Shown here: positions 617 to 34,680 of the stretch, one piece after another
Layout of the letters: the number at the start of each line of letters is the position of its first letter
Position numbering within the stretch: the first letter of the stretch is position 1
Assembly: GCA_023231475.1 (NCBI GenBank)
Contig: JALJEE010001198.1
Location: 1 to 35,082 of the forward strand
Direction of reading: 5' to 3'
Source of the DNA: Seison nebaliae
Lineage: Eukaryota
Length of the DNA: 35,082 bases
Translations under genes and position numbers: made by a program
The notes under the pieces: model-generated
What the model saw: the letters and a program-made list of their open reading frames with translations, nothing else
Told to the model about the DNA's origin: nothing
Databases searched by the model: none

Positions 617-1220
617 TTACTCGTTTTCTTCTTTTGTTCCAACTAAATAATTTTCATATTCTTTCTTCGTCAAGAAATTTAATTTATCTAAATCTTTACT
701 TTCGATTTCCACTATCCAACCTTCCTCCTCAGCAGACTTATTGATTAACGATGGATTATCTTCCAGTTGTTCATTGACAGCGGTGATTATACCGCCAACT
801 GGTGATAAAAGATCTTCCGCTGCTTTCACACTCTCGATGACTGAAATTGGAGCTGAGAGAAAGAATTGAAGTGAAGGAAAGAATTATAATGAACTTCCTT
901 CATCGATTTTCTCTGTCGCCTTGATCAACAATTCAGTGTAAACGATATCGCCCAATCCTCTCTTGGTGAGAGCGAATAAATGTGAGTGAGAGGGAAGAGA
1001 AGAGAAACTTGTGCATGATGAGTGAGACCGATGCGATAATGACCAGGCGCATCCATTTCTTTTAGCCATTCGTGACTCTTCGTATACATGACGTCTGACC
1101 ATCTGGAGATAAGAACGAGGAAATGAAATTGAAAAAACTTTGTTTGACATGGAAAGTGGATAGGAAGCAATGGATGTTCGGTTGACGAGCACCAGACCTT
1201 AATAATAAACGACTGAACAT
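617..1220 (-). CDS. GCSH: Glycine cleavage system H protein, mitochondrial (156 aa, 4 exons)
   Basis: ATG 1220. Introns 1138-1095 (GTTTTT..CAG), 1008-962 (GTTTCT..AAG), 894-853 (GTTCAT..CAG). Spliced protein: MFSRLLLRSGAR presequence, YTKSHEW, IGLTHHAQRGLGDIVY, lipoyl motif IESVKAAEDLLSPVGG, NKSAEEEGWI. Spliced length 471 nt, in frame. Confidence 0.95.
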
Positions 1221-6304: not shown

Positions 6305-6765
6305 ATGCAGTATCCATCTACCTATGACCAACAGCAACAACAACAGCAACAACCTCAGCAACCTCAACAACAACAACAACAGCAGAAAGGACAAATGCCC
6401 AATCAAATGATGTATCAATCTAACACGAATATGTTACCGAACAAAATGGGCATGCAACAACAACAACAACAGCCTATGACGAATAATATGAATTATTCGT
6501 TAATTAATCAACAACAACAACAGCAGCAACCACATCAAACACCGTTAGCATCACAACAAAAGAATCATTCATCAAACTTTTCACCACAACTCAATCAGAT
6601 GAATTCAAATATGACATCTCATCAACCACAACAGATGCAACATCAACAATTCGATAATTTACAAGGAAATATGATGATCAATGGAATGACCTCCAATTAT
6701 TCAAACGATTTTCAACAACAACAACAACATCCACAAAATCAACAACATCCACAACATCAACATCC

Positions 6766-6833
<68 letters not shown>

Positions 6834-9550
6834 ATCCACAGAAACTTCAAATGAATCAACATAAAATTATGAATAATCAAATGAATAATCAATTATCGGT
6901 TGATATGGGTAATATGAATCTACAACCTGATCTAAATCAGCAGCATTTATACAATTCAACCACATTATCATCCACCACCGCAAATGCCATGTTGCAATCG
7001 CCGGGTGGTGTCGGTGGTCTGAACCCGTCTATGGGTTCTGTATCCAATACTGTTTCATCGAAAACTATATCTGTGCCATTATATCGTTATTATCGATCTG
7101 ATGATCGTACGAAAACGGAAGTGTTAACATTCATCATGCCGTCTACTATTGCTATTCCCACAGACAACATCCGAACGATAACGGAAGATTTCATTGCTGG
7201 TTATCAGCGCTGGTCCATCACTCTCTACCGAAATGGTAATACGATAGACGCAACACTTACATTAAAGTCGTTGACTGAAGGAATGAAAGTACAAACCGAT
7301 TTCACATTGTTACTCATCCATAAAGAGCACGGTTTCCAAAATCCTGAACATAACGAAAAAGATTTCACCTTTTCTGTTCTTCAGCCCTATTATTCGAAGA
7401 AAGGACTTGTCATGTGCGATGCCTTACTCTCTCAAGATTTCCTTGACGAACAAGGTGATTTCCTTTGTCAAATTCACTTCAACAATGCTGAGACTATATT
7501 CGAGACATATGATAACGTGTTGCAAGTGTATTCGTTAGATCGCAGCGTTCCCATCGACAAGAAAATTGAATTTATGCCTTTCTATTTTGCCGGTTACAAA
7601 TGGCGCTTAATTCTTTATCCTCGTCTAGACCAAGTCGGTCACGTCAACTATTTGAAATTAGTTTTATGTAAGATATCCGCTCCCGATCTAGCGTGTCATG
7701 TCGTCTTTAAATATGAGTTGAAATCGAAACATTTCGAATACGAATCTCCAATGTTCACTCGGACAACCGATTCTCGTGGTTATACGGAAGCGTTCCGTTT
7801 TGATAAAGTTCGCGAGTTGGTCTGTTCAAATCATACGGGAACATTCGATCTTTATGTGAGTTTGAGAACAGCCATAACAGTAACAACTTGTCGATTATAT
7901 CCACGTCCAGCCGATGTTCCTATGAATGCCGATAGTCAACAACATGATCGTCGAACGGATCCTGTAAAATTTTACGATCGTCTACAATGTTGTTGGTCAT
8001 TGGGCGCATACGTAGATGAGTCGGGTCATCTTTGTTTAGGTCTGTATAATATGGATGTGGGTTCGATGACACCTGGTCGTACTAGAATGGTCTGCTTTAA
8101 TATGGCTTTGCGTAGTCCGAGTGGAAAAGCGGCAATTAATGCACATCCTTCCTCAGCATCCGGCTCTACTACTTCTACGTCAACGACTACCACCGCTGCC
8201 ATAACGAACATGATGGGAATAACGACGACATCCTCCTCCTCCTCTTCAAATTCCACTTCATTATTTCAAACGAAATCTCCGGGTGAGTCAATTCATTCAT
8301 TGAACGGACAATTGACATCGAATTCAATGATCAATTCTAATCGTTCCAATTGCATTCAACCACCAGCCGCCTTCGCAGCTTTTCCTGTTTATCACGTATT
8401 CAAGACACCGCTCGTTCGAACTTATGTAAATAAATTGGCTGGTGACGAAGGACTTTATATCAATTGTGGATTGAATTCGGATGATTTAACATCTGGTTCC
8501 GAATACATCGATAGTGACGGATCAATAGTAGTGGATTTCGAATGGTATTACGGATACACTCTCCGACAGATGTTATGGCAACCGATCGAAAACATTTTCA
8601 TAAAACATTGGATTCAATTAAGACGTGAATATCAAGTAGCATTGAAAGAATTAAATCGATTAGAACGTGAGAATTGGCGTCATGGACCTGAAGCACAAAT
8701 CATTCAACAACAGAATGATGCCATTTCCAAATTGACACCTCAACAACAACAACAACAATTATTGAAAGGTGCTACTCTGACGAGTACGGGAGCAACATCG
8801 TTAGGAGCATTGGCTAAAACTACAACATTTACATCATCATCTATCACTACAACGACGTCGTTAGCAACATCGTTAATGATGACATCTATATCATCATCGT
8901 CGATTAATATGATTCCCAATACGATAAATACGTCAAATACATTGTTGGGTAAGACGACATTAAGTAGTGGAATGAAATCGCCATCTAATAAAATGTTGCT
9001 GTCATCGACGGCTAATACATTCTCGCCACCTGGAACATCACCAGGAATTATGGGAGGAATGAGTTCGATTGGAAATAATGGAATGAACATCAATCCACAA
9101 ATGCAACCAATGAATAATATGAATATGATGAATAATCCTAATACTAACATGCCACCTAATAATCAATTCCCATCACAAATGATGCCAATGGGAATGTCTA
9201 TGCAATCACAATCAGATCCATTCAATCAACGTCTACCAAATCAACTTAATCTCCAACAACAGCAACAGCAACAGCAACATCAACAACAACAATTCATGCA
9301 GCAGTCACAACAACAACCAATGACAACTACTCAATCAAGTTTTACAGCTGGTTTAACAGGATTATTAAGTGGATTTGGTGGTGGTAACAATCCACCAGGT
9401 CAACCACCAGCCAATCGTCCTGGTCTCCCCAATCAACCGAATCAACAAATGGGTATTGGTAGTTCGTTATTCTCCGCTAAAGGTCAAGCAGCCGAAGCCG
9501 CTTCCAGTCTTACATCTGCCCTCAGTAGCAAACTGTCCAGTTTCTTTTAA
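6305..9550 (+). CDS. Intronless protein: Q/N/M-rich N- and C-terminal regions around tandem MATH/TRAF-like domains and a short coiled coil
   Basis: One long ORF (open from 5879; likely start MQYPSTY at 6305). The central region has three MATH-like openings: FIAGYQRWSITLY, FYFAGYKWRLILYP...YLKLVL and FYDRLQCCWSLGAY...LCLGL. These are followed by helical LRREYQVALKELNRLEREN. The domain call is by motif resemblance only. Confidence 0.8.
6767..6832 (+). repeat. Pure (CAA)22 coding polyglutamine tract
   Basis: Uninterrupted CAA run encoding Q22 in the 6305-9550 CDS. Confidence 0.95.
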
Positions 9551-10018: not shown

Positions 10019-13000
10019 ATGTTTTATTCGAAAATACGGGAAAATATGACGGCTATTCTCCAGAAGAAAGTGGAGAATTCAACACCAGATCAGGTTCCTG
10101 ATGACGAGAGAAAGTTTTTACTTTACTTCTTCACAACTTCTCACCACGACACCTTCTAAGTGAAGTAGACGACATTCTCAAAACGTCGAATTCCAATACC
10201 ATCTTCAAAGTTTTGTTGCGTGAAATGGCCAAAACGGGCCAACAAGATAAACAGGAAGGAACGTTGATGAGTATCCTGAAACATTCGGCAACAGATCGCC
10301 CATCGACAGAAGTGAATGCTCGCCAAAATAAAATTTCCACTGTCAAATATCGAGAGTTAGTAGTAGTGAGAAAGAATTCTTTATTTTTCCTTGTTGCTAT
10401 GGAAACGGTTAAGAAAGCGTAAATACAAATTAAAACTTTGAACAAGTTGAGGAAGGAAAGAAAATAAAAGAACTTATTAAACTGATTTCATCATATTTCT
10501 TAATCATTCTAGAATTCTCATGAAGAAATATGGAAAAGATGAGTTGGCACTCTGGCCCGAATGGACAGATAATGACATTCTCAATGAAAAATGGGAATTA
10601 TCAACCAATGGTTCCGGTACCATTCAATCGAACTATAACGTTCATGGAAACAGAGAACCGATTCTTTCAATCAGTCAATCCCATCAACAAAAATCTGGTA
10701 AGGAAACTTCCCTTGCCAAAAATAGTAGTGCTGTCAATAATAAACAAGTTCTCATTTTCCTTCCAAAATTTTCTTCTAAAAATTTCCCAATTCTAATTAT
10801 TTTCTCAATCTTCTCTTCCATCTGTCTTTCTTAAAATTATTTATATATCTAGATGGAAACGATAAATTCTGACAATCTATTCAACGATAAACGTACAAAT
10901 TTCAAAAGTTTTATCGATCGCCTTATTCCACTCCAACAATATCCGTGTTATGAAGATGTCGAAGGAATTTTATTTCTTCCAGATAATTTGGATGTATATT
11001 GTTGGATAAGAATCCAACCATTCTTATCTCAATATAATAAAGTTGTGATTTAATTCAATTTGTAAACGTCTAAAAATAGTTTTGTTTAGAGTCGAACAAT
11101 TGTCACATCGGTTGTGGAGACACAAGGTAATTATGAATGTATAAATGACGTTGACATCGACGAGAAGATTGATGAGAATTCTTTAGAGAAAACTTTCTTG
11201 AACGTACCGAAGACAAATGAGATAAAATTTGAAGAATTATTACCAATTCAATTGGGTTTGGATCGTACTGAACCTGATGTGTTTTCGAACGATTATGATG
11301 GAATTCAAATAAGTATTTCCAATAAAGATAATGAGGATGAAGGGAAAACTGGAAGTGCACCGGAAGATAATGAAATAAAAGATACGAATTCAGACACTTC
11401 CAATAACGATAAGGAATTGGAAGAATTGATTCGACAAAATAAAAATTTAATATTTGGCGAATCGGTTTATCGAGCGATATATGACTCATTTTTCCATCTC
11501 TTCCAAATGAATAAGAAAATGGAAAAGATTAATTATGAGAAGAGAATTTATTATAAAATTTTAAGTTTGGTCTCCATTGACACGACATCGCCATTGTTAG
11601 AGAATAATCTTCAAGCAAATCCAACGAACAATAATGCGAAGAATGAGAAGAATAAATCTCAGAGTCGTTTGTCAAAGAAGAAAGGTTTCCATTAATTTTC
11701 ATTTCATTACTCCTATAATAAATCTCTGCAGAAATTCGAAATTCGATCGATACATCAAACAAAAGTACAGTGTCCACTACTAGTGGGAAGGACAAGAAAA
11801 AAGATAAATCGGAAACGCAGGAACTGCAACCGAAGAAAGTGGATAATATTCAACAAAAATCAGAGAAGAAATCAATTAATATTTATCGATATCGATGGTT
11901 ACCTCATGACAACATTTTTACACCGTTGTCAATGACTAATGTTCCCACCAATACTCAGAATAATCAACAATCAAATCCATCGAACGAGAAAAAGGCACCA
12001 ACTACAGCAGCAACTACAGGCACCGGACCGACAACAGCAGCCACAACTCAAAAATCGGTCACCGGTGAAAAATCGAAATTGAAAACAGAAGAGAATTTAG
12101 AACGTTCCCAAACTGCCACAACATCTAAAGAAGAGATAGTCCGATATATTTATCCGCCGATTGTTTATACGGAGAATGTCAATCCGAATTCTCCGGTAAT
12201 TGTCAATAATCGTCATCAAATTAATATGCCGAGTACATCAGGTAAATATATTGTCAAATTATATTTTATGGGGAAATGGAGGAAAGTTTATGTGGATGAT
12301 TATATGCCAATTAATCAATCAGCGAAACATTTACTTCCCATCATTATAGGGAGGAATGAAGAGGAGACGAATAAATTATGGTCATTTCTTTTGACTAAAG
12401 CATTACTGAAAGTACTCGCATTAATCTATTCGAATGTCGATTGGTCTCATCTTCCTTACAACACCTTACATTTGACAATCATTTATTTATTAACATCATA
12501 CGAACCGGAATTGATGAATTTACAGAAGAAACAAAATTTCTTGTCAATTTTGAATCAGTTCATACCATTCTCTGATCAATATGATGATAATGAGAACGAT
12601 ATAAAGAAACCATCACCCATCATCGCTTATCATCAAGGAGAAATCCCAATGAATCTTTCGAAAAGTTGTCGTCGATCAGAAATTTTGAGATCGAAAGGAT
12701 TAAATCATCGTTTGTGTCAAACAGTTTCCGTCAATAGATATCGAAAAATATCGAAAGAGAATCGAGAACAATCTCACAATCCTCTAAAATTATCGACACC
12801 CAATTGGAAAAAGTTTCGTTTTGGCATCAAGAAATATATAATACCATTCGATGATATTATTGAGAATGATTCGGAGAATAATTTCGAAATTGAAATATCT
12901 TCTTTATTTGGCATGGAGGAAATGTTGAGTGTTGATATTGGAAAGAAGGTCGATGGAATTGCATTTCCAATGAAAAAAATTGAATTTCAAGAAAAAAATT

Positions 13001-16000
13001 TAATTAGTCAATTGAAGTATTGTGTGGAATCGAATCTTCGCCAATATGAGCCCGAACAACGGATGAATGGAGAACAATGGAAGTTGAACAATGCACCACC
13101 GTTACCTCTCCATTATTGTCTGTCTTCTGTGCAGACACAATCAGCAATAGAGATGGAAAATGAACAGAAACGATTAGAATTGTATAAGAAATGTGCGAAG
13201 AACTTAATGAAATCAGCGAAATGTAATTCAGATGATGAAAAATTATCTGGAATAAATGAAGAGAATAATAAAAAATCAGGAAAATTCACACAAAGAAATT
13301 CCGATAATATACTTCGGAGTCGAACGGTTTGGTTGAGTTTATCGGAATTTTTAATTTGTTTCAATTATTTGGTGAATTGTTGGGATACACAACAATTTGC
13401 TTATACCACTTGTGTTGATGATATTATTAAATTATCAGGAATATCCACATCGAATCTCTCGTCGAATACGAACGCTGGAAATGCGGCAAATATGGCGACG
13501 ACCACACAACCAAAAAAAGGTGGTGGTACTGCCACCACTAAAGAGAAAGGGAAATCCGTTCAAAATTCTTCAGTTCTTACAGATGTATTGAAAGCAACAT
13601 CAATGCCTCATTTTCTTCACAATCATTTCTTATCACCTGAGAATGATGAAGGAATGAAATTGAAGAAACAAATTTATAATGTACAAATCGATCCGACGAT
13701 GTACAACAAAACTTCGCAGAAAATAATTTATGGACAGAATCGACAATTAATCGCTGATATCAGTCGACGTAAATGGAATTATTCGACATTCGTCGGTGAT
13801 ATTCAAACATACGAAATTTTCATACTTATCGATTACGAATATACAAATAGAAATGAAGAACGCTCATCAAATTTCCTTCATTTTCATCTCAATTCTCTAC
13901 CCAGATGGTATGAATGGAATCATCAAAGTTCTAATCAGAAAACTATTCATCTGCCACCTCAAAATAAGATCAAGCGAAAAGTGTCACTCCAATCGACGGA
14001 TAAGAAAAAGAAGAAAGTTCAACAAAATAATCCGAGAGATAGTTCCTTCAAAAGTATTGATAATTCTGATCAACAATATGTAAACAATCAATTTCATGAT
14101 GGGAGAGTATTAAATTATTCGTTTGTTGAAATTTTCCCATATTCGTGGAAGAATCGGAATTATGAGAATAAACCAATTTATTCGACAACCATTTCACTCA
14201 TCAACAGTTTCTCCTTGCCATTTACACCCGGGTTCTATTTTGAATTGTTTACATTTCTCTAAAATTTTCTTTCTATATTTTCTAGAAGAAGAATTTTAAA
14301 AATGAAATTAAATATTCCAATTGCATTCACTTTAAGAGTCAATTCAAATAAACCATTTTTATTGGGAAATGAAGATTTCATATTAAATGCTCTCGCTCAA
14401 AAATCTTATCATTATATTTATGATTCACTCATTCTGTTCAATGCATTCCAGAAGGCAGTTCTCTCATATAAACATAGTGAACAACGGAATGATATCGAAG
14501 AATCGATCAATAATTTAACCAACATATTCTATCCACTTTCTATTCATCCATCCCCATCTTCCTCACCAATACCTTCCGCCAAATCTCATGGTATTTCTCG
14601 TGGTGCCAGTTCTACTTTAAAATTGAAACATGACAATTCATATTCACCTGCCATTTTCCAACAATATAAAACTCAACAACAAATCTTCCGATCGATGATG
14701 AATGAAAACCATCACTTATCCATCCATTTGAAGAGGAGTGAAGCAATCATTAATTTCAATCGGGCACTCTTTCGTTTCCTTCGTGATATTATTGAAGAAC
14801 ATTCGAAGAAACAAGCCACAAACACAACGAACGAATTGAATGTGAAGAAACCGGCGAACGTGAAGAATACAGCGGCAAAAGTGGAACAACAAGTTGAGAA
14901 TGAAATACAAAAATCTGAAATAACCAACATCTTTCCAAATCAAGCACAGATTGAGAGGAAGAAATTGGAATTCGCTTGGAGAAGTTTCACTTTCGATTTT
15001 GCGTCGACAGATCCATTAGAATTATTCACCGCCAATGAACGTCAGTGTTCGGCACAGTCTCATGTTGAGACGAATGAAGTTAAGAATGAAACAATGTTCA
15101 ATTCCGATTCAATTCCACAAATCACTTATTCCCTTGAAGAAGAGAACGCTGCCGTTACTGTACAGAGTGCATGGAAAGGATTTCTTGTTCGTCGGATGCA
15201 TAATTCCAGAATACCTGGTACCATTGAACATGGAATCGTTTTGGAGCAATTAATCGAATCATTAAAATTAATAAAGATCGCTCCAAAAAAGTATCAAAAT
15301 GTCGTAAAATTATTTTCATTTTATTTATCTACTTCATCTTTCTCGTCCGAAATGTTCTCTCATTCCATTTTCGAATGGAATAACATTTTCCTTTGTAATT
15401 ATGGCGGATATAGTGAAATGGAACGACAGAATGATTCGATTCATCAATTCTCGTTTAATGATGGGAAGTTATCGAGACAATCACCCTCGATCAATACGGA
15501 GACGATAAAAACGACAAATAGTAAACAATCGAAATCGAAACAGAAAAATAATCAGAAAATTCTGGAAAATGAAACAAGCAATTTCCAAGAAGGCAACAAG
15601 TTGATTGAAGGGAAATTGGAAAAAATCTTGATTATTCCTCATCTCATCTACCGGTTTCAATATCTCTCATTCTTACACCATTTCATTTAAACTTTCCATT
15701 TTTTCTTTAGCGATATCTATTTCACTTATGTCGATAGTCGATTAGATAGTCAACATTCCGAATCCGTTCTCGCTAATACGATTATTGAGCGAGCTGGTGA
15801 TATTATTGAGAAGAAGAGTTTGGGAGCAGTAGAGAAATTGAATCGACTGAATGGAACAATTCGTCAAATTTATGATCGAATGAATGAAGATAAGAAGAAA
15901 TTGAAAGTTCTTCGAATTGACGAACAACAAATCTATGTAAATTATTCTGCAAAATTCGAAGCCGACGAATTGTCTTATCAATTACATACGGATCTAGTAA

Positions 16001-18481
16001 TTGTCGATAATGATAACCATCAAATTCTCAGAAAACGGTTGGGAGAATTAGAACCCTACCACTTTCCGACAAATGCGTTTGGTTATACAATCTTAATCGT
16101 CGCTTATCAGACGTTTAATGGAAGACAACTTCAACCAATTAATCGACAGAAAGAAAATTTATCTTCCACATTGAAACCGAATGAAATAACGAAACAAAAA
16201 TCGAAACAACCAGCTAATTCTTCAACAATAAGTCAATCCAATTTACCGTCAGCCACACCACAAATACAATTAGATGAAACGAAATTAAATATCAAATGGA
16301 ATCTCCATTTCTTCTCAACTTCTCTCCGAACTATTATTCCCCGAACTTTCTACAACGAATATTTCTTTGACAATTTTAATCAGCGATTGAAAGATCTGAA
16401 ATCAAATGACACATCAGAAAATGAATCTCAACTCTTAGGAAAACTGAAGGAAATTCTCTTGTTTAGTGAACAGGAATTCTATAAATCTTATTCGAATCAA
16501 TCAGTTAATTCTAATTATCAGACTACTAATCAACCGACAACTACCACTACAACCATCAGTGGTTCAGGAGGGAATACGACAACAAATGTGAGTGCAGGAG
16601 CCACCTCTGGTTCATCATCCCAATCAGACATATGGCAACAGAAACATAATGAGCAAATGGGAATTATCGGAATAAATGAACAATCGATATTCAACCGAAT
16701 TCTTTATCAGACTAATTATTTCAATAATTTATATACCCGAAAAGAATTCACTGATTATTTCATTCCAAGACGTGCAAATAATTTGATTGTGAGATATAAT
16801 ATCTCCACCTTAAAAGACCAATTATCCACCATCTATTTCTATGCCAGCAATACGATGGCACATATACAATTATCGATTATTGATAAGGAACTAAATAAGA
16901 AAATTATCGAAGTTGACGGATTTGGCCAAGCAACAATTCCAGCAGTCATCTTCTGGAAATCGCGAACGGATATATTAATTTCCAATGAGAAGATATATAA
17001 TAACCTCAGTGAAACGAACACGAATCATGTTGAGCGTCCGGAAAAGTCACCGGTGCCGCCTGCGAAAAAAGGCTCGAAAAATGCATCAAGTAAAATGAGT
17101 AAATCATCAATGAAAAATAAAAAACCATCAATTGATGAAGACACGGTTCTTTTTTGTTTTATTTTTTGAAAAATTTAATTCCCTTTATTCAAATTTATTC
17201 ACTCGTTGTTTATATTTTGTCAGTCATCAGAATCAGAGAAGATATTGAATTTATTTCCATTTTACATGGAGAACGAGAACGAACTAAAAGAAATTTTTTC
17301 ACCACATCATTATTGGTTGGAGGTGAGAGTCCTCAATAAATCCTGGAATAAATTGAGTGAAAATCAATTGACATTTATTGATCAACAGAAAACGATAGAA
17401 AAAGAAAAGAATAAAAGTTTCCCAATTTCTTCTTTAAATTCCAATTCAATTTCAAAAATAATATTTCAATTATCAGTTTTAAAAGAAGAAGTAAAAGATG
17501 AGAAAATCAAACAAACCACATCAACATCAAGAAACCGAAGTCGAATGACTTCTCAACAGAGAGGAAACGATTTAAAATCGACAGAACAGAAAACGATCGA
17601 TGAGACGAAAGCACATTGGAAATTGATACTATTCTCTGATAAATCAGCCGAAGTTCCAATTCTTTAAAGATTCTCATTTTTTTAATCATTCTCCTTTATA
17701 GAATGATTTGACGATTGAACGTGATAATAGTACGAATGAATCGTTAGTGAATATGAAGAAAGCGTGGGAAATGAGCGAACCGGGACGATTACAAAAAGGA
17801 TTGACAACTGCCTCCCAATACACTCACCATAAACAACAATATAAGGGTGATGAAGAAAAAATTGATAATGAGGATGATGATAGTGACGATGATATTAAAC
17901 TGGTGTCAGCAGATGATGAGAAAAATTCGGAGGAGAATGTTATCGATCAAGAAATGAATGGAGATACGACACCTAAATTACCCGTTCTTTTATATCGTCC
18001 CATAAAAGAGGAGCATTATAAAAAGTTTTTCTCTTTTCTTTTCGTGCATATAAAAGAAAAATATTCGTGTGTTTGTAGAAATCGTAAAAATGTTAATTAT
18101 CCAATGACGACGGATGAAAAAGTGGGAACAATAGCCCAGTTCAAGCAGAAAAAGAATGAGATGTTGCAATACAATCAAATTTTAAAAGAAATTTTCCTCA
18201 AAGAAAAAGAGACGAATAAATCCTTTAACATTTCCATCGATCAAACAGTTGACACATCTCTACTTTTTTCTCCTTCAATTTTTTCTTTCTTTTCCTTCTT
18301 TCAGATAAGAGAAGCGAGAAAATCCTATCAATTGAAAACAGATCAACAACAAGAAATTATTAGTAAAAAATTAGCGGAATTACAGGCATTGAGTGAATCG
18401 AAACCAGCAACACCCATTGCTCCAGTGGCACCAGCAGTCATGACGAAAAATAAGGAGAAGAAAGCCTCAAAAGCTAAATGA
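10019..18481 (+). CDS. ADGB: Androglobin (calpain-like domain, circularly permuted globin, IQ motif), about 2549 aa, 13 exons
   Basis: Motifs LWPEWTDNDILNEKW, YEDVEGILFLP, SGKYIVKLYFMGKWRKVYVDDYMP...LWSFLLTKALLK, IQ motif AAVTVQSAWKGFLVRR, LVIVDNDN, KKAWEMSEPGR. Introns 10114-10160, 10356-10512, 10748-10852, 11042-11089, 11685-11731, 14232-14285, 15654-15710, 17146-17223, 17417-17476, 17653-17701, 18025-18078, 18248-18304 (all GTT..AG). Spliced length 7650 nt, in frame. The first two exons are less certain; alternative start at ATG 10520. Confidence 0.9.
10393..10406. promoter_or_regulatory. RFX X-box (GTTGCTATGGAAAC)
   Basis: 14-bp imperfect palindrome matching the X-box consensus GTTNCCATGGNAAC at all but one position. 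It ends about 114 nt upstream of ATG 10520 of a cilia-associated gene. A forkhead-like GTAAATA lies at 10419-10425. Confidence 0.7.
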
Positions 18482-18922: not shown

Positions 18923-19480
18923 ATGATGACTAATGTGAAATCTCCGAATTTTTACGAACGTCTCAATTGTAACGAATATTCCACAGTTTTCATCTCTTAT
19001 TCCGACTCTTCTAACACATAATCTTTCTTGTAGATTGAACAAATTCAAACGGAATTTCGAAGAAAAGCTGTCGACTGTCATCCTGATCGTTCCAATAAAA
19101 ATCCGGATGCCAAACAATTCCAGGAATTGGAAGAAGCGAAACGAATTCTTTGTGATGAGAAAACACGACCGATTTATGATCGATGGTTATCAAATCCTAT
19201 AAATGTGCCATGGAGTGATTTTTTGAAACAATCTGGAAATTTTTCATCATCCTTCCATTTCGCTTACACCAAACCACCAGCAGCTATTGATATTCGAGGT
19301 TAGTTAACTTTTTGAAATATTATGAAAAATATTTTATGATTTTTTGAAGGAATGGACGAATCGGTTGAATCAATTGTACAAACTGACAACGATTCGATAA
19401 TTACATTTAATGATCATCGTTATCAATGGCAACGATCAAACAGTGACATCCGTCGGAAATTTCGACGATATCAAATTTGA
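18923..19480 (+). CDS. DNAJC12: DnaJ homolog subfamily C member 12 (152 aa, 3 exons)
   Basis: Missed by the ORF track. ATG 18923; introns 18986-19033 (GTTTTC..TAG) and 19299-19349 (GTTAGT..AAG). Protein: FYERLNCNEYSTIEQIQTEFRRKAVDCHPDR...FQELEEAKRIL...YDRW, C-terminus IRRKFRRYQI* (compare DNAJC12 LRKFRNYEI). Confidence 0.92.
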
Positions 19481-19730: not shown

Positions 19731-21679
19731 TCATTTCATCATTTGTTTTTCCGATTGTTTGTTAACGGTGCCATTTATCGTCTTCTTTCCTACAACCGTC
19801 GATGATGAGACGATGTTATTGTTAGTTCCATTTTCAGTTGCCGTTTTCCCATTCGCTTTTCCATATTTGGGCATTTGGAGTGAATCGATCAATGGTTGTA
19901 CTCGATGTTCGAGTAACATGTTGTTGATTGGTGGGAGGCCGATACAAGCTCGAAATAAATTCTCCAATGCCGATTTCTGACGGAATAGAGAATTAACCAC
20001 AGGAATTCCATCAGGTGATAATGGTGCTTTCAAGAAGAGTGAAAGGAATGATAAAATTGAATGGAATGATTGAAAATTCAATTCCATCTCTTCATTGTCA
20101 GTTACTGCGATTTGTATTCTCGTGAGTAATTCGGTGACGATAATCAAATCAAGAATTAATGGAGCGGCCAATAACGAATCTTCACAAGTATTATGAATAA
20201 CGAATGTTTGATGTCCACCCATCATAATCTGACACGTATACTCATCCATAGCACGCTTAGAATCGCCCACATATGGTACATATTTAATAACAACACAATG
20301 ATCCGGTTTGTCGTTGGTCTCATACAACAATTTATTACTCTTCACCATATCATCGACGACATTCGTTTTCGAAATTTCTTTTGAACGGAATTGTTGTGGT
20401 GCACTGAGATTTTTTCCATCATTATTACCCAAATGATTATAACTGACGATGGAAACGGGTTTGATACCACATGACACTAAGAAATCAACAAGTACAGATT
20501 TCAATTTCGTTTGACCCGTTTTGAAATCATCACCAGCAATGAAAGCGTTATGCTCCTCCGCTAATTCAATGAGTCCTGGAACGAACGTATTTTGAGGAGA
20601 ACCATTAATATATGGAACATTCTCTAAAATTGCTGCCATGGCAAAAAGTGTGGAAGGAGCGATTTCTACTGAATGATCATTAATTTTCGTCTTCCTACAC
20701 ATGTCAAGGAGAGTAGAACTATGATCATTCACTCCAGGAATAATCGAAGAAAATCTCTCAGTATTCGCCGTCCACAAAACGATAATTTTATCGACTTTCT
20801 TACGAAAATCACGAATATCATTTCGAATCACTTCCACCAAATCCATGAGGAAACCATCTGTCAATTCAATAACATTATTTGCTCGATCCTCCTGATTAGC
20901 GGCTATATAATTGGGAATATAAATACTCTTTCTTGGTACCATCTCCTTCATCAATGGCGAGAGTTGTTTCCTCAATTCCGGTTCGAAAACTTTCGCTCTA
21001 ATCATAGCATCGGCTAAATTCATGTTGGAAATATCCCAACCATCAAATTCAATATCTTCACCATTCACCATCGGTAATAGTTGACGGATGGGAATGAATA
21101 TTTCATTTCCTGCTTCATCCAATCCGATAGATGTGGTGGCCGCTTGTGTATATGATCCGAACCAATTCGATTTCTCTTGACCATTTCTCGTTTCCCATTC
21201 CAATTTAAATCGATTTGCCAATACTGCTCCAGTGAGAGTGGAGCCGTTATTGCCTCCCCATCCAACTAACATCACTCCTAATTTGGGTACTGTCCGTTCT
21301 GTTCGTAATCGACATTCGATATTTTTCGGTTGAATCTAAAAATCCCAAATAATTAGTTAGATTTTGATGAGTAAACATTTTTTTTTCAAATTACACAAAA
21401 CTAATTAAGAATTCTTTTTTTCTCATCAAATTAAAAAGAAGAAATTTTGATGTTTTATCAAATTTCAAAATAATTATCTTTTAATGAAAATTTGGAAGTT
21501 TGTGAAATTTTTTAAAAATTCTAAAGAGAAACAAGAACTTTATAAGAATTTCCTATCCGATCAACAATAGATGTTTGATATTGATATTGTGAATGAATAT
21601 ACTCCTCCGTATAAACGACGTCATCTGAATCGATAATGAGTTCATTCTCCTGATGTCCATTTTCCGTCAATTGTGTCAT
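19731..21679 (-). CDS. ISYNA1: Inositol-3-phosphate synthase (581 aa, 2 exons)
   Basis: Motifs [47 protein letters not shown]. Exon 1 is 21679-21539; intron 21538-21336 (GTTCTT..TAG). Confidence 0.97.
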
Positions 21680-22779: not shown

Positions 22780-23683
22780 ATGTTGAACTCGCTCAATCGT
22801 TTCCGTCAAAAGACTTGGGATCCCATACTCATTGGAAGTCAAATTGTATGTTTACAAACAGCAACGTACACCTCCATCAGTTTCATCTTAATGATAATTA
22901 ATGCATTTAAAGGATTCACAAATAATGTCGATTATATTCTATCTACCAAAGTCTAATTGTTTCACTAATTAAATTAATCCATTTCATTATTCAGTATATT
23001 ACAACTGGTAACTTGGTAGGTAGATACATCATCATTGCTTACGTCCTCTCTTCAATCGTCAGGTTATTCTCCTTGTAATTCTCATTCAATATCTTATAAC
23101 GACTTCTTCATTCTTACACATCTCTCTCTCACTTTCTCTTCTTTCGAAAATACATTCAACATTTTTCCCAATTCTTTTCTCTCTGTTTTCTTAAAATATT
23201 TTTCGAAATTTTCAAAACACATCGGTTGATTATAGTTTTAAAGTTGAGTTGCTTAAAAAGTAATTTTATGTTTAAGGAGGCCAAAGAGTTTTAAGTTGAT
23301 ATTCTCTCAAACGTTAGAAGTGAGTGGAAGAAAGTTTGTGAGTTTTGAGGAGAAGATTAATTAGAATTATATATATGAATGGATTTCACTAAAATTGATA
23401 TATCTTCATCTTTTTTCTCTCACCAACACACGAACGATACAGTGCATTGATATTGTGGGTATTTATACAGAAAGCGAAGGAATGCCTCGATTTTGCAGCA
23501 ACATTCTTTCTTTATCATCTTATCATAACTGCAGTATATGATGGAATGTTTCCTCGTTCTCTGATTTGGTGGATCGTCAACATAATCAATCTCATCATCT
23601 CTACAATCATCGGGGAATATTTATGTATGAAAAGTGATCTGAAAGACATCCCTGTTAACCAGCCAGCAATCAGTGATGTATGA
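22780..23683 (+). CDS. SYS1: Golgi trafficking membrane protein SYS1 (159 aa, 3 exons)
   Basis: FRQKTWDPILIGSQIVCLQ, KAKECLDFAAT, FPRSLIWW, IGEYLCMKSDLKDIP. Introns 22951-22994 (GTCTAA..CAG) and 23063-23442 (GTTATT..CAG). Confidence 0.93.
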
Positions 23684-26025: not shown

Positions 26026-27017
26026 TCAAAATGATGATTCTAAAATAATTTGTGAAGATGGTGGAGAGGAAAATGAAGGGAAAATAATATGAATATAATT
26101 TGACCATAAAATGAAATGATGATAACTTGCAGTGAAGTTGGATGAACGAAAAGATGCGAGTGAGGAACAATTTGGATCACACAAATCTTCCACAAACTCT
26201 AAACAATCCATTAAAGAATTATGATCTTTTCCCATATCTCCATAAATATATTTTATGTTTAATTTCTGTGGATTCTTCTCTTTGAATTTGGACATTAAAC
26301 ATTTTAAAATTTCTTCTCAAAAATTTCTTATGGAAATGAAGAAAAAAGAAAAGAACTTGTACAATTATCGATATCAGTTCGACTAGCACGCATTGGTTCA
26401 TAAATGAGAACGTCTTTATATCGACGAATGATTACGTTAAAATGCCAAATATCTTTACGACGGTGGAATGCTGCGAGAATACCGATATTTCCATTACGTA
26501 AAATATCTGGGAGATGAAGGATAATGGAATTGTGAAAGAAATTGGGAACTTAATGCCGCTCGATAATCACGAATACTGGCGAACGGTAATAATTTGAGGA
26601 TTTCATGAGAATATAATTTCTCCTCATTGTTAGGGTCGTATGCGAAAATGGTTTTATTTAAACGATTCTCTAAAACTAATTTCTTAAATTTCGATTTAAC
26701 CAAACTGTTATTGGACGATGAGCGCTATGGAATTGGATAAGACGGAGTGATTGAAGGACAAAGAAGATAAAACTAACACCATTCGGACATTTGAGTTCAC
26801 ACGACGCATCACAAATATCGACATGTTTCGGTTTAATTTTCATAATTAATTTTCTGATATGTTTCAACTCATCTAAAATATCTTTGAGAGATGTAAGTGA
26901 AGCACGTGATTTAGGCGTCACTTGTAATCGGGAAATTGCTTTCTCGTACCGTTCGATGATGTTGTTAATTGGTGATGATAACATATCATAATATCGTTGA
27001 CGACGATCGTCATCCAT
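26026..27017 (-). CDS. Uncharacterised protein (about 255 aa, 4-5 exons)
   Basis: ATG 27017. ORF pieces join in frame through introns 26777-26725 (GTTAGT), 26549-26507 (GTTCCC), 26356-26316 or 26313 (GTTCTT) and probably 26126-26040 (GTTATC). No family recognised. Confidence 0.65.
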
Positions 27018-27218
27018 GTTGAATGAATAATAATTATGTTGAACGAAAGAATGAAAAAGTTTGGAAAGAAAATAAAGTTTTTTTTTGAAAAAAAAATTCT
27101 TTTCCTTTTCATTTCACTTCAGTTTTACAGATTCCGCTACAGTTGTTCCCATCGAATTTTTCTCAAAAGAAAAATTGAATAAGAAAACTCTTTTCTTTCT
27201 TTCTCCTTTTTTATTTTA

Positions 27219-28439
27219 TTAAAAAAAATCAGTAGATTGATATGGAGAATTTTTTTTATGAGGATTCACTCTCCTCTCTGACGCTTCAATCAATTTCCGT
27301 TTAGGTAATCGTTTATTGAAACTTTCTTTCCAACAACGTGAAATGAATTGAGAATGATTCTCATCATTTTTCATTAACGATCTATTCAATTGATTCTCTT
27401 GTTGATCGACGATGATGTTGAAGACCTGATCCAAACATAAATGTTTCGATCCAACTCCCCATTTCACATGGAAGTCGATTGGTAATCGTTCACAATTAAT
27501 ATCTTCTTTTCTTGCTTTCGTTCTTGTTAATTTCTTATTAGCTAATTTATCTACTAAAGCGCCAATAATATAAATAGATGAATTGACAGTAGAAATAATT
27601 TGACGACTATCTGGTGAGAGATAAACTAGACGATTAATTGGAAATAATTCCAAATAAGATTTCTCCGAATGAAATAAAAGAAGATCATCTAATAGAATAT
27701 TTCTTCGAAGGAATTCTTTATAATAATCACCATTTTTCTTCATGTTCGTAAAATAGATGAGTAACGGATCATTCCTCTTCCAATTCTCTCCATAAACAAA
27801 GAGAAGTTGATCGATACAATTACGAATGTCTTGTCGTCTCATATGTTCTTGGAAGGAGAAATCGAATGCTATTATATCGATGTTATTTGAATCATAAATA
27901 AATTGATTGACGAGAGAACAGAAATAAGAACGATGTTGAAGTTTCAGATAATTTTTTGAATATTGACGGAAAGGAGTATGATATCCCGGATAGTTTGTCA
28001 AAGGAATATTCAATTTTTTCATTTCATCTCTCCGTTTAACATTCAATTTCATTCGTTCTCCAATTCTTTTCTTCTTTTCTATTTTCTCTTCCGATCGTTT
28101 CCAGAGAACACAGAGATATTTATAAAAACGTTCACGTCGTTGTTGACTATGAATTTCGATGATTTCATTCCATCGATTATTCGTTTCTACAAATTCGACG
28201 GGCGGAGCTGCTTTTCCCGTTTCTCGACATGTTCGAAGTTCTAATCGAATAACATCCTTTTGCTGATCATATTTCAAATCGGTGAACAGACCCAAATCTC
28301 CATTCAAATATTCCAATAACCATTTCTTATCAGCAGCCAATGATTGTTGAGAACGAAGTTGATGGAAATTCCAAGTTGATTGTCGAAACAATTGTGGACG
28401 TGTCAAAGTCAAGAAAGACAAGAAACACTTCTTTATCAT
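27219..28439 (-). CDS. TRMT10C: Mitochondrial RNase P protein 1 / tRNA m1R9 methyltransferase TRM10 homolog C, single exon
   Basis: Presequence-like N-terminus and basic coiled region. SPOUT TRM10 motifs LVYLSPDS, YIIGALVDK, RLPIDFHVKW, LCLDQV, LPKRK. Confidence 0.85.
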   Translation of the reverse strand: MIKKCFLSFLTLTRPQLFRQSTWNFHQLRSQQSLAADKKWLLEYLNGDLGLFTDLKYDQQKDVIRLELRTCRETGKAAPPVEFVETNNRWNEIIEIHSQQRRERFYKYLCVLWKRSEEKIEKKKRIGERMKLNVKRRDEMKKLNIPLTNYPGYHTPFRQYSKNYLKLQHRSYFCSLVNQFIYDSNNIDIIAFDFSFQEHMRRQDIRNCIDQLLFVYGENWKRNDPLLIYFTNMKKNGDYYKEFLRRNILLDDLLLFHSEKSYLELFPINRLVYLSPDSRQIISTVNSSIYIIGALVDKLANKKLTRTKARKEDINCERLPIDFHVKWGVGSKHLCLDQVFNIIVDQQENQLNRSLMKNDENHSQFISRCWKESFNKRLPKRKLIEASERRVNPHKKNSPYQSTDFF

Positions 28440-28971
28440 TTCTACGGTATAGATAAGTGGTAAAATGGACGAACTTCAGAAATTGAGTAATAACTTTAAA
28501 AATTAGCAAAATTTATTTTGAAATTTTCAAATCACATGTCAATTTATGCTTAAAATTTAAATTATTTAAATTAGAACATAATAGGAAATACTCAAAATTT
28601 TCTCGTATTTAAAGAGAGAGTTTGAGAGGAATATTTTCTAAATCCCACATTTGGAGCTTCTTCTTCAAACCGTTTTCACGATCCGTTCTCTCATGATGAA
28701 AAGTGAAAGATAAACATGAATTCTGACTAATTTCCCTGAAAAGGACAGATTTATTAATTTTCATTAAATTTCATTGTTTAACTTGTGACAACCTGTGTAT
28801 CGGAGGTGAAGGGTAGAACAAAACGATTTATATGCCGATTTCTTCAGGTGACATACTTTCCATATCGTTCAATAATATTGATCGATTTCTTTTCTTGTTT
28901 ATTTTATTCCTTATTTACATATCATATCTAGTCATCGATTAACTTATTAACATTCGATTCCATTATCTACA

Positions 28972-31900
28972 ATGGCATTCGAAGATGGACAAAATGTTTG
29001 GGTACCTGACGTTGACGATGGTTACATTTTGGGCCACATCGTTGACATCGGCGCGTCCACATTTACTATACGATCAATTAACAATCCAGAAAAAATGATT
29101 CAAGCCTCAATCGATCAAGTTTATCCCACCGAACAATATGATCATGATGTTGATGATAATTGTGCTCTCATGTTCCTGAATGAAGCAAATTTATTGAACA
29201 ATATTCGTCGTCGTTATAAACGAGATGCGATTTATGTTAATTCTCTTCTCCCTTCTTCTCCAATCGCCCAATCCATCTAGACTTACGTCGCAAACATCTT
29301 ATTGGCCATCAATCCCTATAAAGATTTGAAGAATTTGTATTCGAAAGAAACCGTCCACAAATACAAAGGCAAATCGTTAGGTGTATTGCCACCACATGTC
29401 TTCGCTATAGGTTCACATTTCTTCTATATCTCTCCGCTCTTTCTTTTCTATGTTCAATACTACCGATAAATATCATATTATTAATATAAATTAGTTAAAA
29501 AATTATTTGAAACTCAAAAGAAAAAATTTGGAGAATTACCTTTTTTTTTATTTTATATTCCTTATAAATTAAAAAAAAAGAGAAATTACAATTTAATTTT
29601 TTTTCTAGCTGACAAATCATATCGTGATATGCGAGCGTTGAAAATCAGTCAGTCGATTATCGTTAGTGGAGAATCGGGAGCTGGTAAAACAGAATCTACC
29701 AAATATATTATCCGGTTTCTTATGGAGAATTGTGGTGATCATTCTGGTTGTATCGAGAAAAGAATTGTTGAATGTTCGTTTTTTTGTCGATTTTGAAAAT
29801 TTCTTATTCTTCTTCTAGCCAATCCATTATTAGAATCGTTCGGAAATGCGAAAACGGCAAGAAACAACAATTCTTCACGTTTTGGTAAGTTTATTGAAAT
29901 TCATTTCGATAAGAAAGTTTTTAATCTTTTCTTCTGCTGCTTATCATTCTGCTTTGATCCTTTTCTTCTTCCCTTCTTTCTTCTTCCCAATTAATCCTCA
30001 TCAGTTTTCCGTTAACGGTGGCTTCATATCACATTACTTATTGGAGAAATCGAGAATATGCATGCAGTCGCCCGATGAGAGGAATTATCATATATTTTAC
30101 AGATTAATTGCTGGTGCCCAAATGGATTTGCGGAAGAAATTACATCTTACAACACCTGACGATTTTTATGTTTCTTTTCAATTTCCATTAATATTCTCAT
30201 TTCTCCTCAGTATCTCAATTCCGGTTGTACACAATATTTCATGAACGGTTCCAATAAGATTGATAAGGATCGTACAAGTATCAATTTCCAAAAATATGGT
30301 TCATTACGAGATACACAAATGAATGATTTCACTGATTTTTGGGAATGTGACAGTGCGATGAGTCAAGTTGGATTGACGGCTGATACAAAATTTCTTATTT
30401 ATCGAACTATCGCTGCTATTCTCCATTTGGGTAACATTCAATTTGATGAGAGTGATGACTCAAAAGATGGTAGTCGAATCGTTGACAATTCGAAAGAATC
30501 TTTAGAATTAACTGCACAAATGATCGATGTATCGATCGATGAATTGAAAAGTCGATTAATTTATCGAACAATCTCCTCAGGTGGAACAGAAATTCAAGTT
30601 CCCTTAAAAGTTCACGAAGCACAAAATGCGAGAGATGCTCTCGCTAAAGCGATCTATTCTCGACTCTTCAATTATTTGGTGGATATCGTTAACAAATCGA
30701 TTCCATATGACGTTTCTAATTCTTTCATCGGAATTTTGGATATTGCTGGATTCGGTTTCTCATTCTCTTCCATTTCCATCATCTAATCATTTTTCATTTA
30801 AAGAATTTTTTCAAATTAATTCCTTCGAACAATTTTGTATTAATTATTGTAATGAAAAATTACAACAATTCTTCAACGAAAGAATTTTGAAAGAAGTTTC
30901 TTCTAATTTCATTTTTAACCAATTCAACTTTCTTTTTTCTTCGAAAGGAACAAGCACTTTATGCGAAAGAAGGACTCAATGTTAAAAAGATTCATTATAT
31001 CGATAATGAAGATTGTATCGGTTTTTCTTAATATTTTTTCGAAAAATTTTTTGAAATTTTTTAAAATTATTTTTTAAGATTTAATTGAAAATCGAATTAA
31101 AGGAGTTTTCCATTTGTTGGATGAGGAAAGTAAATTACCAGCATGTCGTCCTGATCATTTCACTTCAGAAGTTCATTTGAGAAATCGAGGACATTTCAGA
31201 ATTGACGTTAATATTTTGATGATTCTCTAATTCCAAATAATTTTCTTTTGAAGTTTCCAAGAAAGTCTCGATTGAAATGCTATCGCGGATTGAGAGACGA
31301 TGAAGGATTTCTGATTCGTCATTTCGCTGGAGCTGTCGTATATCAGACACACCAATTCATAGAGAAGAATAATGATGCACTTCATCAATCCTTATTATCA
31401 TTAATTCAGGTTTTCATCTTTTTTTTGATTTTTAACAAAAAAAAATTTTTTTCAAATTTTATTATAGAAATCCAACGATGATTTCATTCAGAAATTGTTC
31501 AATGATAATGACGATAAAAAATTGACGTCCACTTATACGAACACTTTCATGACGTCGCCGGAGAAATCGTTGAAAATCGGTCGGTTGGGATTCATCAGCA
31601 TTGGATCGAAATTTCGATCTCAATTGGCGTTGTTGATGGAGAAATTGAAAACGACACGAACTAGTTTCGTCCGATGTGTCAAACCCAATAGCAAAATGGC
31701 GAGTAATGTGTTTGATGGTGGACCGGTGTTGAGTCAATTACAATGTTCGGGAATGACATCGGTGGTGAGTTTGATGCAGCAAGGTTTCCCCTCACGAACT
31801 CAATTTCGTGAATTATATGAAATGTACAAGAAGTTTATGCCAAAAAAAATGATCAAATTAGATCCAAGATTATTTTGTAAAGCGTTATTCCATGCATTGG

Positions 31901-33716
31901 GATTGAACGAGAATGATTACAAATTTGGAATTAGTAAAGTTTTTTTCCGACCGGGAAAATTTGCTGAATTTGACAAAATGCTCCAAACGGATTCAGAGGA
32001 AATTTTGCGGTTAGTTGACGCGGTTGGAAAATGGTTGAGATGTTCAAGATGGAAACGTGCACAATGGGGAGCTTTGAGTGTGATCAAATTGAAGAATAAA
32101 ATAATTTATCGAAGGAATTGTATCGTGAAATTACAAAGTGAATTTCGAGGTTATCTCGTCCGACGACGATACAAAGAACGAATTCGAATGATGAGAGAAA
32201 TTCGAATTCTTATCAATCGTGATGATGAAATGAGAAAATTATTGAAAGAGTTGGACGAGACGATTCGTTTGAAATTGTTGATGAGATTGAATTTGAGTCA
32301 AAAGAAATTAATGGAAATTGAGAATAAGGTCAAATCGGTTAATGACAAACAATTTCATCATGAAGAGATTGACGAGAGCCTATTGAAATTTCGTAAGGAG
32401 ATTAATGAGAATTTCAACGAAATTAAAGAAACGTTAGAGAAAGAGAACATTCGAAAGAAAGAAGAACGTGAAAGACTTCAAATATTGGCAATGGAAATGG
32501 AGCAAGAGAAGGAGAAACAGAGACGATTAAAAGAAGAAGAGGAAGAGAAACGAAAAGATGAACAAATGCGTCAAGAGATCGAAGAACGAAGAAAGAAAGT
32601 GGAGGAGGAATCGAGACGGATTGAAATAGAACGACAGAAAAAAGAAGAAAAACAACTCAAATTAAAAGAACAAGAGAAGTTTAAGAAAGAGGAAGAAGAT
32701 ATTGAGTGTCAGAAAGAAATTGAACAATCCAAACGAGATTTGGAAATGTCAAATCGATTAAAGAATGAATATCGAATCGAAATGGATGACCAACAAGTAA
32801 CAGGAATAACTTCTCCTTCGTCATCATCTGCACCAGTAGCCACCATCGTTGTAACGAAAGATGGTAAATATGATTTAAGTAAATTTAAATATGCCGAATT
32901 GAGAGTTACTATTAACAATTCATGTGATATCGATTTGATCAAAGCTTGTCGTCGCGAATTCCATCGACGACTACACGTCTATCACGCTTGGAAAACGAAA
33001 CATCGACGAAATAGTCTTGCGGCCAGAAATAGTCTAGTTAGTCAACAATTATTAGTTCCCAGCTCAACAAGAACTTCAAATAATAAGACGTCTTCATCTA
33101 TTGTAAATCAGTCATCGAACGACTTGAGTCAATATGACGAGAATGAATTGACGAGAGCTCCTTCTCTACTTCTGAAGGATACGTCTCAAATTAATATTGA
33201 TTTGAAAGCGGAAGGTTAACCAATATATTTCCATTTAATTTTTCATCTTCTTTTTCAGATGATTCACAAAGATACTTTCGTTTATCACACACAACGAATG
33301 ATAGTGTTTGGTATGGTCATTTCGATGGTGAATGGATCGCTAGACAAATGGATGTTTGTAAATTATATTTTAATTCAAATAATTATTTCCAAATATTTTT
33401 TCTCTATCTATTTTTGGCAGGTATTCGTTGAGGGTAAAAGACCAGCTAGACTTCTCGTTGCAGGTGTTGATGATATGTCGATGTTGGAACAAAATTTATC
33501 ATCTACATCATTAACAAAAATTCCCGTTAAATTTCTTTGGAAAACATTCTAATTTTATTTCGATTATTTTAGGGAACGGAAATATTACCATCAGTCTTCG
33601 AAGCGACATGGACACACAATGGTGGCTACAATTATTTATCGGAAAATTTTAGCAACATCTCTTCCAGATATGTCATTCGAATAATGAAGGAAAGACAACA
33701 GAACCTACGTAAATAA
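28972..33716 (+). CDS. MYO6: Unconventional myosin VI (1301 aa, 14 exons)
   Basis: [24 protein letters not shown], insert-2 [19 protein letters not shown], single IQ, E/R/K-rich [26 protein letters not shown]. Introns 29236-29280, 29411-29608, 29774-29818, 29917-30004, 30170-30210, 30755-30803, 30896-30947, 31021-31078, 31207-31253, 31410-31467, 33215-33258, 33354-33420, 33526-33572 (all GTT..AG). Spliced length 3906 nt, in frame. Confidence 0.97.
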
Positions 33717-33919: not shown

Positions 33920-34680
33920 AACTTACGGTCGAACGTATGTGACAGAGTTTCTGTTTCCACTCGTTGGTTGAGATAAACACATTCAGGTTGTTGTTACCTG
34001 CGAAGGTAATTTCTTCGTATGGTAGGCATTCCTTGTTCGGTGATGGAGTTCCGGTTCGGTTTTTCTATTCCTTCATCATCCCCTCCAAACAGTTAATGTT
34101 ATGGATAATATGAAGGTATTTTTGTGGGCATGCTACTACTGACGCAGTTTTTCTGCATCTCTCCTCGTCGATTTCGTAGTAGATTCCTTTAGCGATATTG
34201 TAGATTACCTTCTCCGGTAATTTAATTTTACAGTGATAAAACATATTAGTAAAATATCCAATATTCGTGATTTCGTATTCCAATAAGTTCGCATATGTAA
34301 GGGTGCTTTTGGAATCGAAACTAAAAGGGATAATGTCCATGATTTTTGGTCTACCTTCATAATGTGCGCTCTGGCCATAGTGTAAAACGTCGTGGCGTCT
34401 TTGCACGCCAATATCTTATCCAGTTTCCATTGCTTACATGCTTGGAGTATTTGATGTAGATGGATTAATTCTGGCGTTAATCTTGCCGTCCGGGTAACTT
34501 CTAATAATGCTTCCATTATTTCTTTTGTTTTTATCTTTTCTTCGACCCCGTGTATTTCCTTCTCTAACTCGGAAGTACTATGTAACATCTCATCTATTAC
34601 ATCGGCGATTTTATTCTGATTTTCCTTGATTTGGTTAAATCGGGTATTTACTTCTTTGGTGAAGTGAGCCATATTGTCTA
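33920..34680 (-). pseudogene. Decayed env/F-like glycoprotein fragment of a probable LTR retroelement or endogenous virus
   Basis: A heptad coiled coil, then LTPELI...LSLLVSIP, a frameshift near 34310 into YEITNIGYF...CKIKLPEKVIY...YYEIDEERC...CP...CL, and an in-frame stop at 34065-34067. The layout resembles Gypsy/errantivirus env ectodomains; resemblance only. Confidence 0.45.

Follow-up and report, generated by a model that had tools for sequence, protein, structure and literature searches.

Genes and intron models of the window

The window analysed here is a single contig of 35,082 nucleotides from Seison nebaliae, an epizoic rotifer relative whose genome has been published together with RNA-seq data and measures about 44-46 Mb in either of two strains (PMC8351084). 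In this sample of one 35-kb contig we modelled ten genes, all with open frames, and seven of them contain introns. The MYO6 gene (28972..33716, forward strand; public model SNEBB_000842) has 13 introns fixed by homology, all of which begin with GTT, at positions 29236, 29411, 29774, 29917, 30170, 30755, 30896, 31021, 31207, 31410, 33215, 33354 and 33526. Its intron 4 (29917..30004; 88 nt, GTTTTT...CAG, phase 0) occupies the position of human intron 8, and the exon of 55 codons that follows (30005..30169) aligns with residues 218-272 of vertebrate MYO6, the span of human MYO6 exon 9 (PMC13314912). This match identifies as ancestral the introns that start at the GTT donors 29917 and 30170, and sequence and homology together establish that at least one ancestral exon is retained with its two flanking introns.

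An androglobin-like gene (ADGB; 10225..18481, forward strand) of 2501 codons carries 11 modelled introns, again all GTT, eight of them forced by stop codons and three stop-free and placed by composition. On the same strand lie a J-domain gene (18923..19480) with two introns (GTT donors at 18986 and 19299) and SYS1 (22780..23683; SNEBB_000838), which has a GTT donor at 23063 and the sole GTC donor of the set at 22951; the latter agrees exactly with the public model and matches the Pfam register. The reverse strand encodes the glycine cleavage H protein (GCSH; 617..1220) with three introns (GTT donors at 1138, 1008 and 894), INO1 (19731..21679; SNEBB_000837) with one (GTT donor at 21538), and a short gene of unknown kind (26676..27017) with one probable intron (GTT donor at 26773). 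A MATH-like poly-Q gene (6305..9550, forward strand), with GTGAGT at 7856 and 8283, is intronless. The public models of MYO6, INO1 and SYS1 have the same junctions as those modelled here, and the MYO6 and INO1 proteins of the window are 100% identical to NCBI records from Seison nebaliae.

Donors were placed by homology in 18 cases, by frame or public model in 11, and by composition in 4 stop-free introns; 15 of the 33 were set by us from frame and composition. For MYO6, all GT/GC-AG pairs that lie within 75 nt and leave the frame open were ranked, with no preference for any donor type, by an HMM of 33 non-Seison proteins. The GTT junction ranked top for 13 of 14 introns, and the best GTR alternatives in those introns scored 9-122 bits lower or did not exist. 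The remaining one, the public MYO6 intron 33037-33087, is a stop-free, A-rich GTT..AAG stretch of 51 nt in the variable tail, where homology does not decide. This segment may be a false intron or an alternative splice and was omitted from the tally; counting it would give 33 GTT donors among 34.

Several further features of the window were recorded. The ADGB model includes long low-complexity insertions, and its Pfam matches comprise calpain, IQ and domain IV/V pieces only, those to domains IV/V and IQ being near or under the cut-off. In the MATH-like gene (1081 codons), poly-Q ends flank a match to MATH that is weak and falls below the cut-off (E 3e-4). The MATH and PPP1R3 translations had no exact match in the protein collection, where P0001 and P0121 are single-member clusters. 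At 34065-34825 on the reverse strand, two overlapping ORFs of 206 and 116 codons in different frames, with no Pfam match above the cut-off, are possibly a decayed gene or the remnant of a mobile element. In the stretch 26666-26852, a low-depth DNA contig, about 90% alike, matches on both sides of 26707-26769 and has 76 letters replacing 63, which fits a second lineage with another intron length in the 26676..27017 gene. An Rfam search of the window returned no match and hence no snRNA.

Composition of donors and introns

Among the 33 modelled introns of the seven genes, 32 begin with GTT and one with GTC; none begins with GTA or GTG. The same bias is seen in the donors fixed by homology (17 GTT and 1 GTC of 18) and when stop-free introns are excluded (28 GTT and 1 GTC of 29). 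Measured against intron composition at +4..+20, an all-pyrimidine +3 position has P = 3.2e-5, and T at +3 in 32 of 33 donors, where the background holds 53% T, has P = 2.6e-8 (P = 1.9e-4 for the 17 of 18 in the homology subset). A purine follows internal intron GT in 19 of 56 cases, and the +3 bias is thus specific to the junction. Frame-compatible GTG sites at 11045 and 26779 are possible alternatives to two of the GTT donors. By comparison, a control gene for animal myosin VI (L056), whose introns are equally short at about 60 nt, uses GTR at five of the nine junctions that could be resolved among its 13 (GTA 4, GTG 1, GTT 2, GTC 2), and the other four look like GTR by eye only.

Beyond +3 no position is conserved: A occurs at +4 in 7 and T in 17 of the 33 donors, A at +5 in 9 and G in 4, and G at +6 in one. 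The features of a standard GTRAG donor are accordingly missing, with a +3 purine in 0/33, +4A in 7/33 and +5G in 4/33, and neither A nor G enriched. On the exon side, A stands at -2 in 23 of 33 (P = 9e-5) and a purine at -1 in 26. The introns measure 39-380 nt (median 51), all 33 have GT...AG ends in a search that covered GT/GC-AG pairs only, and T is found in 14-23 of 33 at positions -13..-5. Donors of the form (A)AR|GTT, GT-AG ends and short, U-rich, G-poor introns are thus established at the level of sequence and homology. Raw counts of branch-point motifs (YTRAY in 17/33, CTRAY in 8/33) reveal no strong consensus. GTT is not significantly depleted 20, 40 or 60 nt upstream of the real donors (P 0.3-0.5), and intron density in this window is about 1.6 per kb of coding sequence.

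U12-type donors, which have the motif RTATCCTT, were considered and rejected, as no donor has A at +3. Acceptors reading AAG were seen in six of the 33 introns (962, 19349, 30803, 30947, 31078 and 31253). In the first GCSH intron (1138-1095, reverse strand), the frame indicates that an AG at 44 nt is needed and a CAG at 36 nt skipped; together with the shortest modelled intron, of 39 nt, this hints at a lower size limit.

Canonical-type sites within exons

A canonical-type donor, GTAAGT, lies at 29885..29890 (forward strand) in the Gly-Lys-Phe codons of the MYO6 myosin, where GGT AAG TTT of the sequence NSSRFGKF reads TTG|GTAAGT. The initial annotation had described this site as lying in conserved codons, 32 nt upstream of the GTTTTT donor that the protein demands at 29917, and as causing a frameshift if used. 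Our analysis agrees on each of these points. All 33 myosin VI homologues share residues N203-F211 (NNSSRFGKF), E213, H215 and F216 without change; the 29917-30004 junction is 56 bits ahead of its nearest rival among 10 open-frame alternatives; and a frameshift results whichever of the 10 AGs found from 29910 to 30166 is joined to 29885, with a stop at residue 212 if the true acceptor at 30004 is used. The GTAAGT at 29885 would thus appear to be ignored by splicing. The same site had also been called a perfect donor, which it is not: -2 is T here, whereas 23 of the 33 real donors carry -2A. Use of 29885 would extend intron 4 from 88 to 120 nt. Two GTT sites in the same exon, CAC|GTTTTG (29879) and TAA|GTTTAT (29889), both fit the local donor pattern and are apparently bypassed as well, so that position matters, whatever the third base. 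The second of these, a Seison-type donor with the exon end AA|GTTTAT (29889..29894, forward strand), scores 97 bits worse in the HMM.

The remaining sites that had been cited, GTG|GTGAGT at 31765, CGG|GTGAGT at 8283, CAG|GTAAAT at 12242 and AAG|GTAATT at 11127, are all present, and their reported location in conserved exons applies to 31765 and 12242, as it does to 29885, but not to 8283 or 11127. The GTGAGT at 31765..31770 (forward strand) falls in the conserved GMTSVVSL region of a 1.7-kb MYO6 exon, and the GTAAAT at 12242..12247 (forward strand) within the Pfam calpain match of ADGB; both are probably unused. We give little weight to the other two, because the GTGAGT at 8283 belongs to a low-complexity stretch of the intronless MATH-like gene and the GTAATT at 11127..11132 (forward strand) to a non-conserved ADGB exon without a Pfam match. 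For the latter, homology does not show non-use, and by phase it could join the acceptor at 11731 in frame. The 68-nt middle exon of SYS1 (forward strand) contains three more sites that appear to be unused, G|GTAACT (23008), G|GTAGGT (23016) and AG|GTAGAT (23020).

As a background for these sites we used 80 metagenome myosin loci from mixed, unmatched eukaryotes, including some near-duplicates, among which no rotifer or acanthocephalan gene was identified. Dropping three loci without the RFGK motif left 77 for the analysis of that motif, and dropping 12 of the 80 without an unbroken motif-bearing ORF of at least 1500 nt left 68 ORFs totalling 290 kb. Unspliced GGTAAGT occurs at the motif in 4 of the 77 control myosins, and the control exons hold 41 GTRAGT in 290 kb; the caveat, raised with the original proposal, that pseudo-donors also occur in ordinary genomes is well founded. 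Control myosins do avoid GGTAAGT at the motif, as seen from the skew in its codons (GGT-AAG 4 versus GGT-AAA 22; GGA-AAG 12 versus GGA-AAA 14; Fisher P = 0.034).

Motif counts in exons were compared with expectations from per-gene synonymous shuffles, the Seison coding sample amounting to only 20.5 kb. Sense-strand GTRAGT occurs 5 times in Seison exons against 4.6 expected (O/E 1.08; controls 0.54; P = 0.11), GTRAG 16 times against 14.1 (O/E 1.13; controls 0.70; P = 0.045), and GGTRAG 8 times against 4.5 (O/E 1.79; controls 0.62; P = 0.008); these P values are nominal, about 40 motifs were inspected without correction, and the controls match Seison in neither taxon nor gene type. The 19 low-GC controls gave O/E values of 0.54, 0.69 and 0.53 for the same three motifs. 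The Seison GTRAGT count is at chance level, and the signal consists in the missing depletion that controls display, in a small sample. AGGTT is depleted in Seison exons only, with 3 occurrences versus 12.7 expected (O/E 0.24; controls 0.97-1.06), ranking 28 of 766 five-mers by depletion, and GTTTT is likewise low (14 versus 22.6 expected, O/E 0.62; controls 1.08-1.10); AAGTT is not depleted (O/E 0.92). AGGTA remains scarce in the Seison exons (4 versus 11.2 expected, O/E 0.36; controls 0.52-0.63), which speaks against a reversal of exonic avoidance. Part of the low AGGTA and GTA (O/E 0.70) may be general TA avoidance, the values for TA and CTA being 0.87 and 0.73. Runs of A are also avoided in the coding sequence of the window, AAAAA being the most depleted of the 766 five-mers (89 versus 210 expected from synonymous shuffles).

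The suggestion in the initial annotation that exonic GTRAGT escapes depletion was therefore upheld in part: depletion is absent from the 20.5 kb, but the difference from controls has P = 0.11 and AGGTA remains low. Its broader claim, that GTR is disfavoured rather than GTT merely tolerated, is supported, though by evidence other than its own, namely 0/33 GTR and 32/33 T at +3, the missing depletion of GTRAGT, GTRAG and GGTRAG and the depletion of AGGTT; the argument from a single site is weak. The donor tally is strong evidence, and single unused exonic sites are weak evidence.

A probable change of donor rule and its possible causes

Seison nebaliae probably recognises the beginnings of its introns by a rule that has changed. 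The best reading of our data, to which we assign a probability of roughly 0.6, is a lineage-wide switch to U at +3, the position of the splice site being determined by the short, U-rich introns. That donors of Seison require GTT we regard as very probable. The spliceosome would then demand U as the third base of the intron and would likely have ceased to read GTRAGT, so that sites such as 29885 could stay unused in exons. GTT occurs 292 times in the modelled exons and alone cannot specify a donor. Position is most likely set mainly by intron definition, from a U-rich tract and an AG some 39-70 nt away, and GUU would serve as a checkpoint once intron definition has fixed the place.

Could GTT instead be merely tolerated, the donors having drifted to T under intron definition while GTR stayed equally usable and the exonic sites were ordinary cryptic donors? 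The unspliced GGTAAGT at the same motif of four control myosins, the bypassed GTT sites at 29879 and 29889, the low AGGTA and the lengthening of intron 4 that 29885 would entail all suit this view. Free drift, however, predicts about 27% GTR (9/33) where none was observed (P = 3e-5), and T at +3 in 53% of donors instead of 32/33; moreover, the purines after internal GT tie the bias to the junction, and we consider mere tolerance improbable. Still less probable is a standard signal read one base out of register, of the type GTTRAGT: donors such as GTTAGT, GTTAAT, GTTAAC and GTTAAA do occur, but the counts of +4A, +5A and +6G (7, 9 and 1 of 33) form no displaced motif, and we disfavour this idea. 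An artefact of gene modelling or assembly seems the least credible of all. The junctions are indeed known here from sequence, homology and public models, one of which includes the doubtful intron at 33037. Against this stand a junction ranking that used no donor preference, an exon equal to human exon 9, DNA contigs that agree with the window where aligned, and the penalty, rather than preference, given to GTT by common aligners (PMC9869432). The contigs from three sequencing runs that align with 18500-31000 are DNA-like and contain no splice joints, which speaks neither for nor against the junctions.

As to the cause of a GTT requirement, we predict, at slightly better than even odds, that it lies at the snRNA level, in altered contacts between the donor and snRNAs. 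At human donors, U5 loop 1 contacts the exon end and U6 contacts +3..+5 (PMC11347140), and the +3 base faces U6 G44, weakly (PMC11732430). METTL16, which methylates U6 and is linked to donors of the GURAG class (PMC11347140), is scored Missing in Seison only, among the 25 syndermatans of a BUSCO table (PMC12256650). When METTL16 is lost, use shifts from //GURAG to sites that contact U5 more strongly (PMC11347140). A lack of methylation at U6 A43 might have weakened the GURAG class and left the contact of U5 loop 1 with the exon, visible as -2A, and METTL16 loss is likely part of GURAG loss. Since about 36% of BUSCOs are missing from the Seison genome (PMC8351084), the absence of METTL16 may also reflect chance or divergence. 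METTL16 loss has furthermore been reported to lead to a preference for +4U (PMC10581693), yet in the Seison donors +4U shows no enrichment (+4T 17/33 versus 53% background, P = 0.86), although it exceeds +4A (7); METTL16 loss alone therefore does not explain +3U. A second change would have to impose the U, perhaps an A in the U1 arm where it faces +3, or a wobble between U6 G44 and U(+3).

The main rival to an snRNA-level cause holds that the same GTT rule is imposed by protein, with standard snRNAs and either a U-binding helper of U1 or changed U1C, LUC7 or PRP8 contacts. TIA-1/Nam8-like proteins are U-binding helpers of U1. ZMAT5, one of the proteins scored in the BUSCO table, belongs to the minor spliceosome. 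Among the splicing-related rows listed in that table, at least 30 in number, Seison has 25 Complete, 1 Fragmented and 4 Missing, the last being METTL16, SNRNP40, SPF45 and ZMAT5, while SNRNP27K and PRP8 are Complete (PMC12256650). ZMAT5 is also Missing in both acanthocephalans (row 796 of the supplement), and the searched text of the BUSCO supplement has no entry for U1 proteins or LUC7 (PMC12256650). The Missing scores of SPF45 and SNRNP40 speak for a protein rule, as do the several atypical-donor lineages that keep a standard U1 (bioRxiv 10.1101/2022.06.08.495308; PMC10581693) and the lack of any conserved position after +3, which implies little base pairing. A general U-binder, however, should enrich U at +4 to +6, yet only +3 exceeds the background, and a rule for one position fits a fixed contact. 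We thus consider a protein-imposed rule unlikely, albeit less so than mere tolerance.

Comparison with known systems

From yeasts to mammals, donors are more commonly of the GTR type (PMC9869432, PMC12766944). Seison introns resemble the standard U2-type GTR..YAG class in their GT-AG ends, their U-rich 3' tract and the presence of core spliceosome proteins, and differ from it in having no GTR among 33 donors and AAG acceptors in six. Strong-looking exonic sites that appear to be unused are shared with ordinary genomes, but such pseudo-donors are depleted about twofold in controls and not in Seison, where no true donor resembles them.

The closest known case is Entamoeba, where GUUUGU donors are accompanied by a co-evolved U1 (ACAAAC) and, after massive intron loss, GUUUGU accounts for 88-90% and GUUUGN for 97-98% of donors (bioRxiv 10.1101/2022.06.08.495308). 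Both systems have near-universal +3U in place of a purine (32/33 in Seison), but the +4U and +5G of Entamoeba are rigid, whereas Seison has +4T in 17/33 (background level), +5G in 4/33 and GTTTGT in 1/33. Having +3U without rigid +4 and +5, and being intron-rich in this window, Seison works like the Entamoeba-type class but does not belong to it. In Mamiellales the preferred donor is GYGCGY and U1 is standard, and atypical donors mostly accompany heavy intron loss; the transformed donors found in print, mostly from intron-poor organisms, belong to unicellular lineages or to a slime mould (bioRxiv 10.1101/2022.06.08.495308). Lineages or mutants without METTL16, namely Saccharomycotina, C. elegans mett-10 and Arabidopsis fio1 (PMC10581693, PMC11347140, PMC11732430), share with Seison, in which METTL16 is scored missing, the shift from //GURAG towards the exon contact of U5 loop 1. 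They change +4, from A to U, whereas Seison changes +3 without an excess of +4U and keeps SNRNP27K; the METTL16-less yeasts are also intron-poor with near-invariant signals, unlike Seison (PMC10581693).

A literature search, with subscription journals mostly outside its scope, found no paper that describes the splice signals of Seison or GTT donors in any animal. Term searches of PMC8351084, PMC12256650 and PMC10125929 in their main texts showed nothing on either subject, and the supplements of PMC8351084 gave no match for splicing terms.

Taken in full, the proposal is that the major spliceosome of an intron-rich animal has been rewired genome-wide, with ancient introns converted to GUU, U6 unmethylated, a compensating change in U1 or U6, and GUAAGU rendered invisible. 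We advance this complete chain tentatively, as somewhat short of an even chance. A +3 purine preference is built into aligners (PMC9869432), and with aligners that penalise GTT, genes of Seison nebaliae will be mis-modelled. If the reading is true, an animal with many ancestral introns has switched to GUU, and the splice code can change over thousands of sites without mass intron loss. Seison would then offer a natural experiment on whether the third base of the intron is read by U1, U5, U6 G44 or U6 m6A43.
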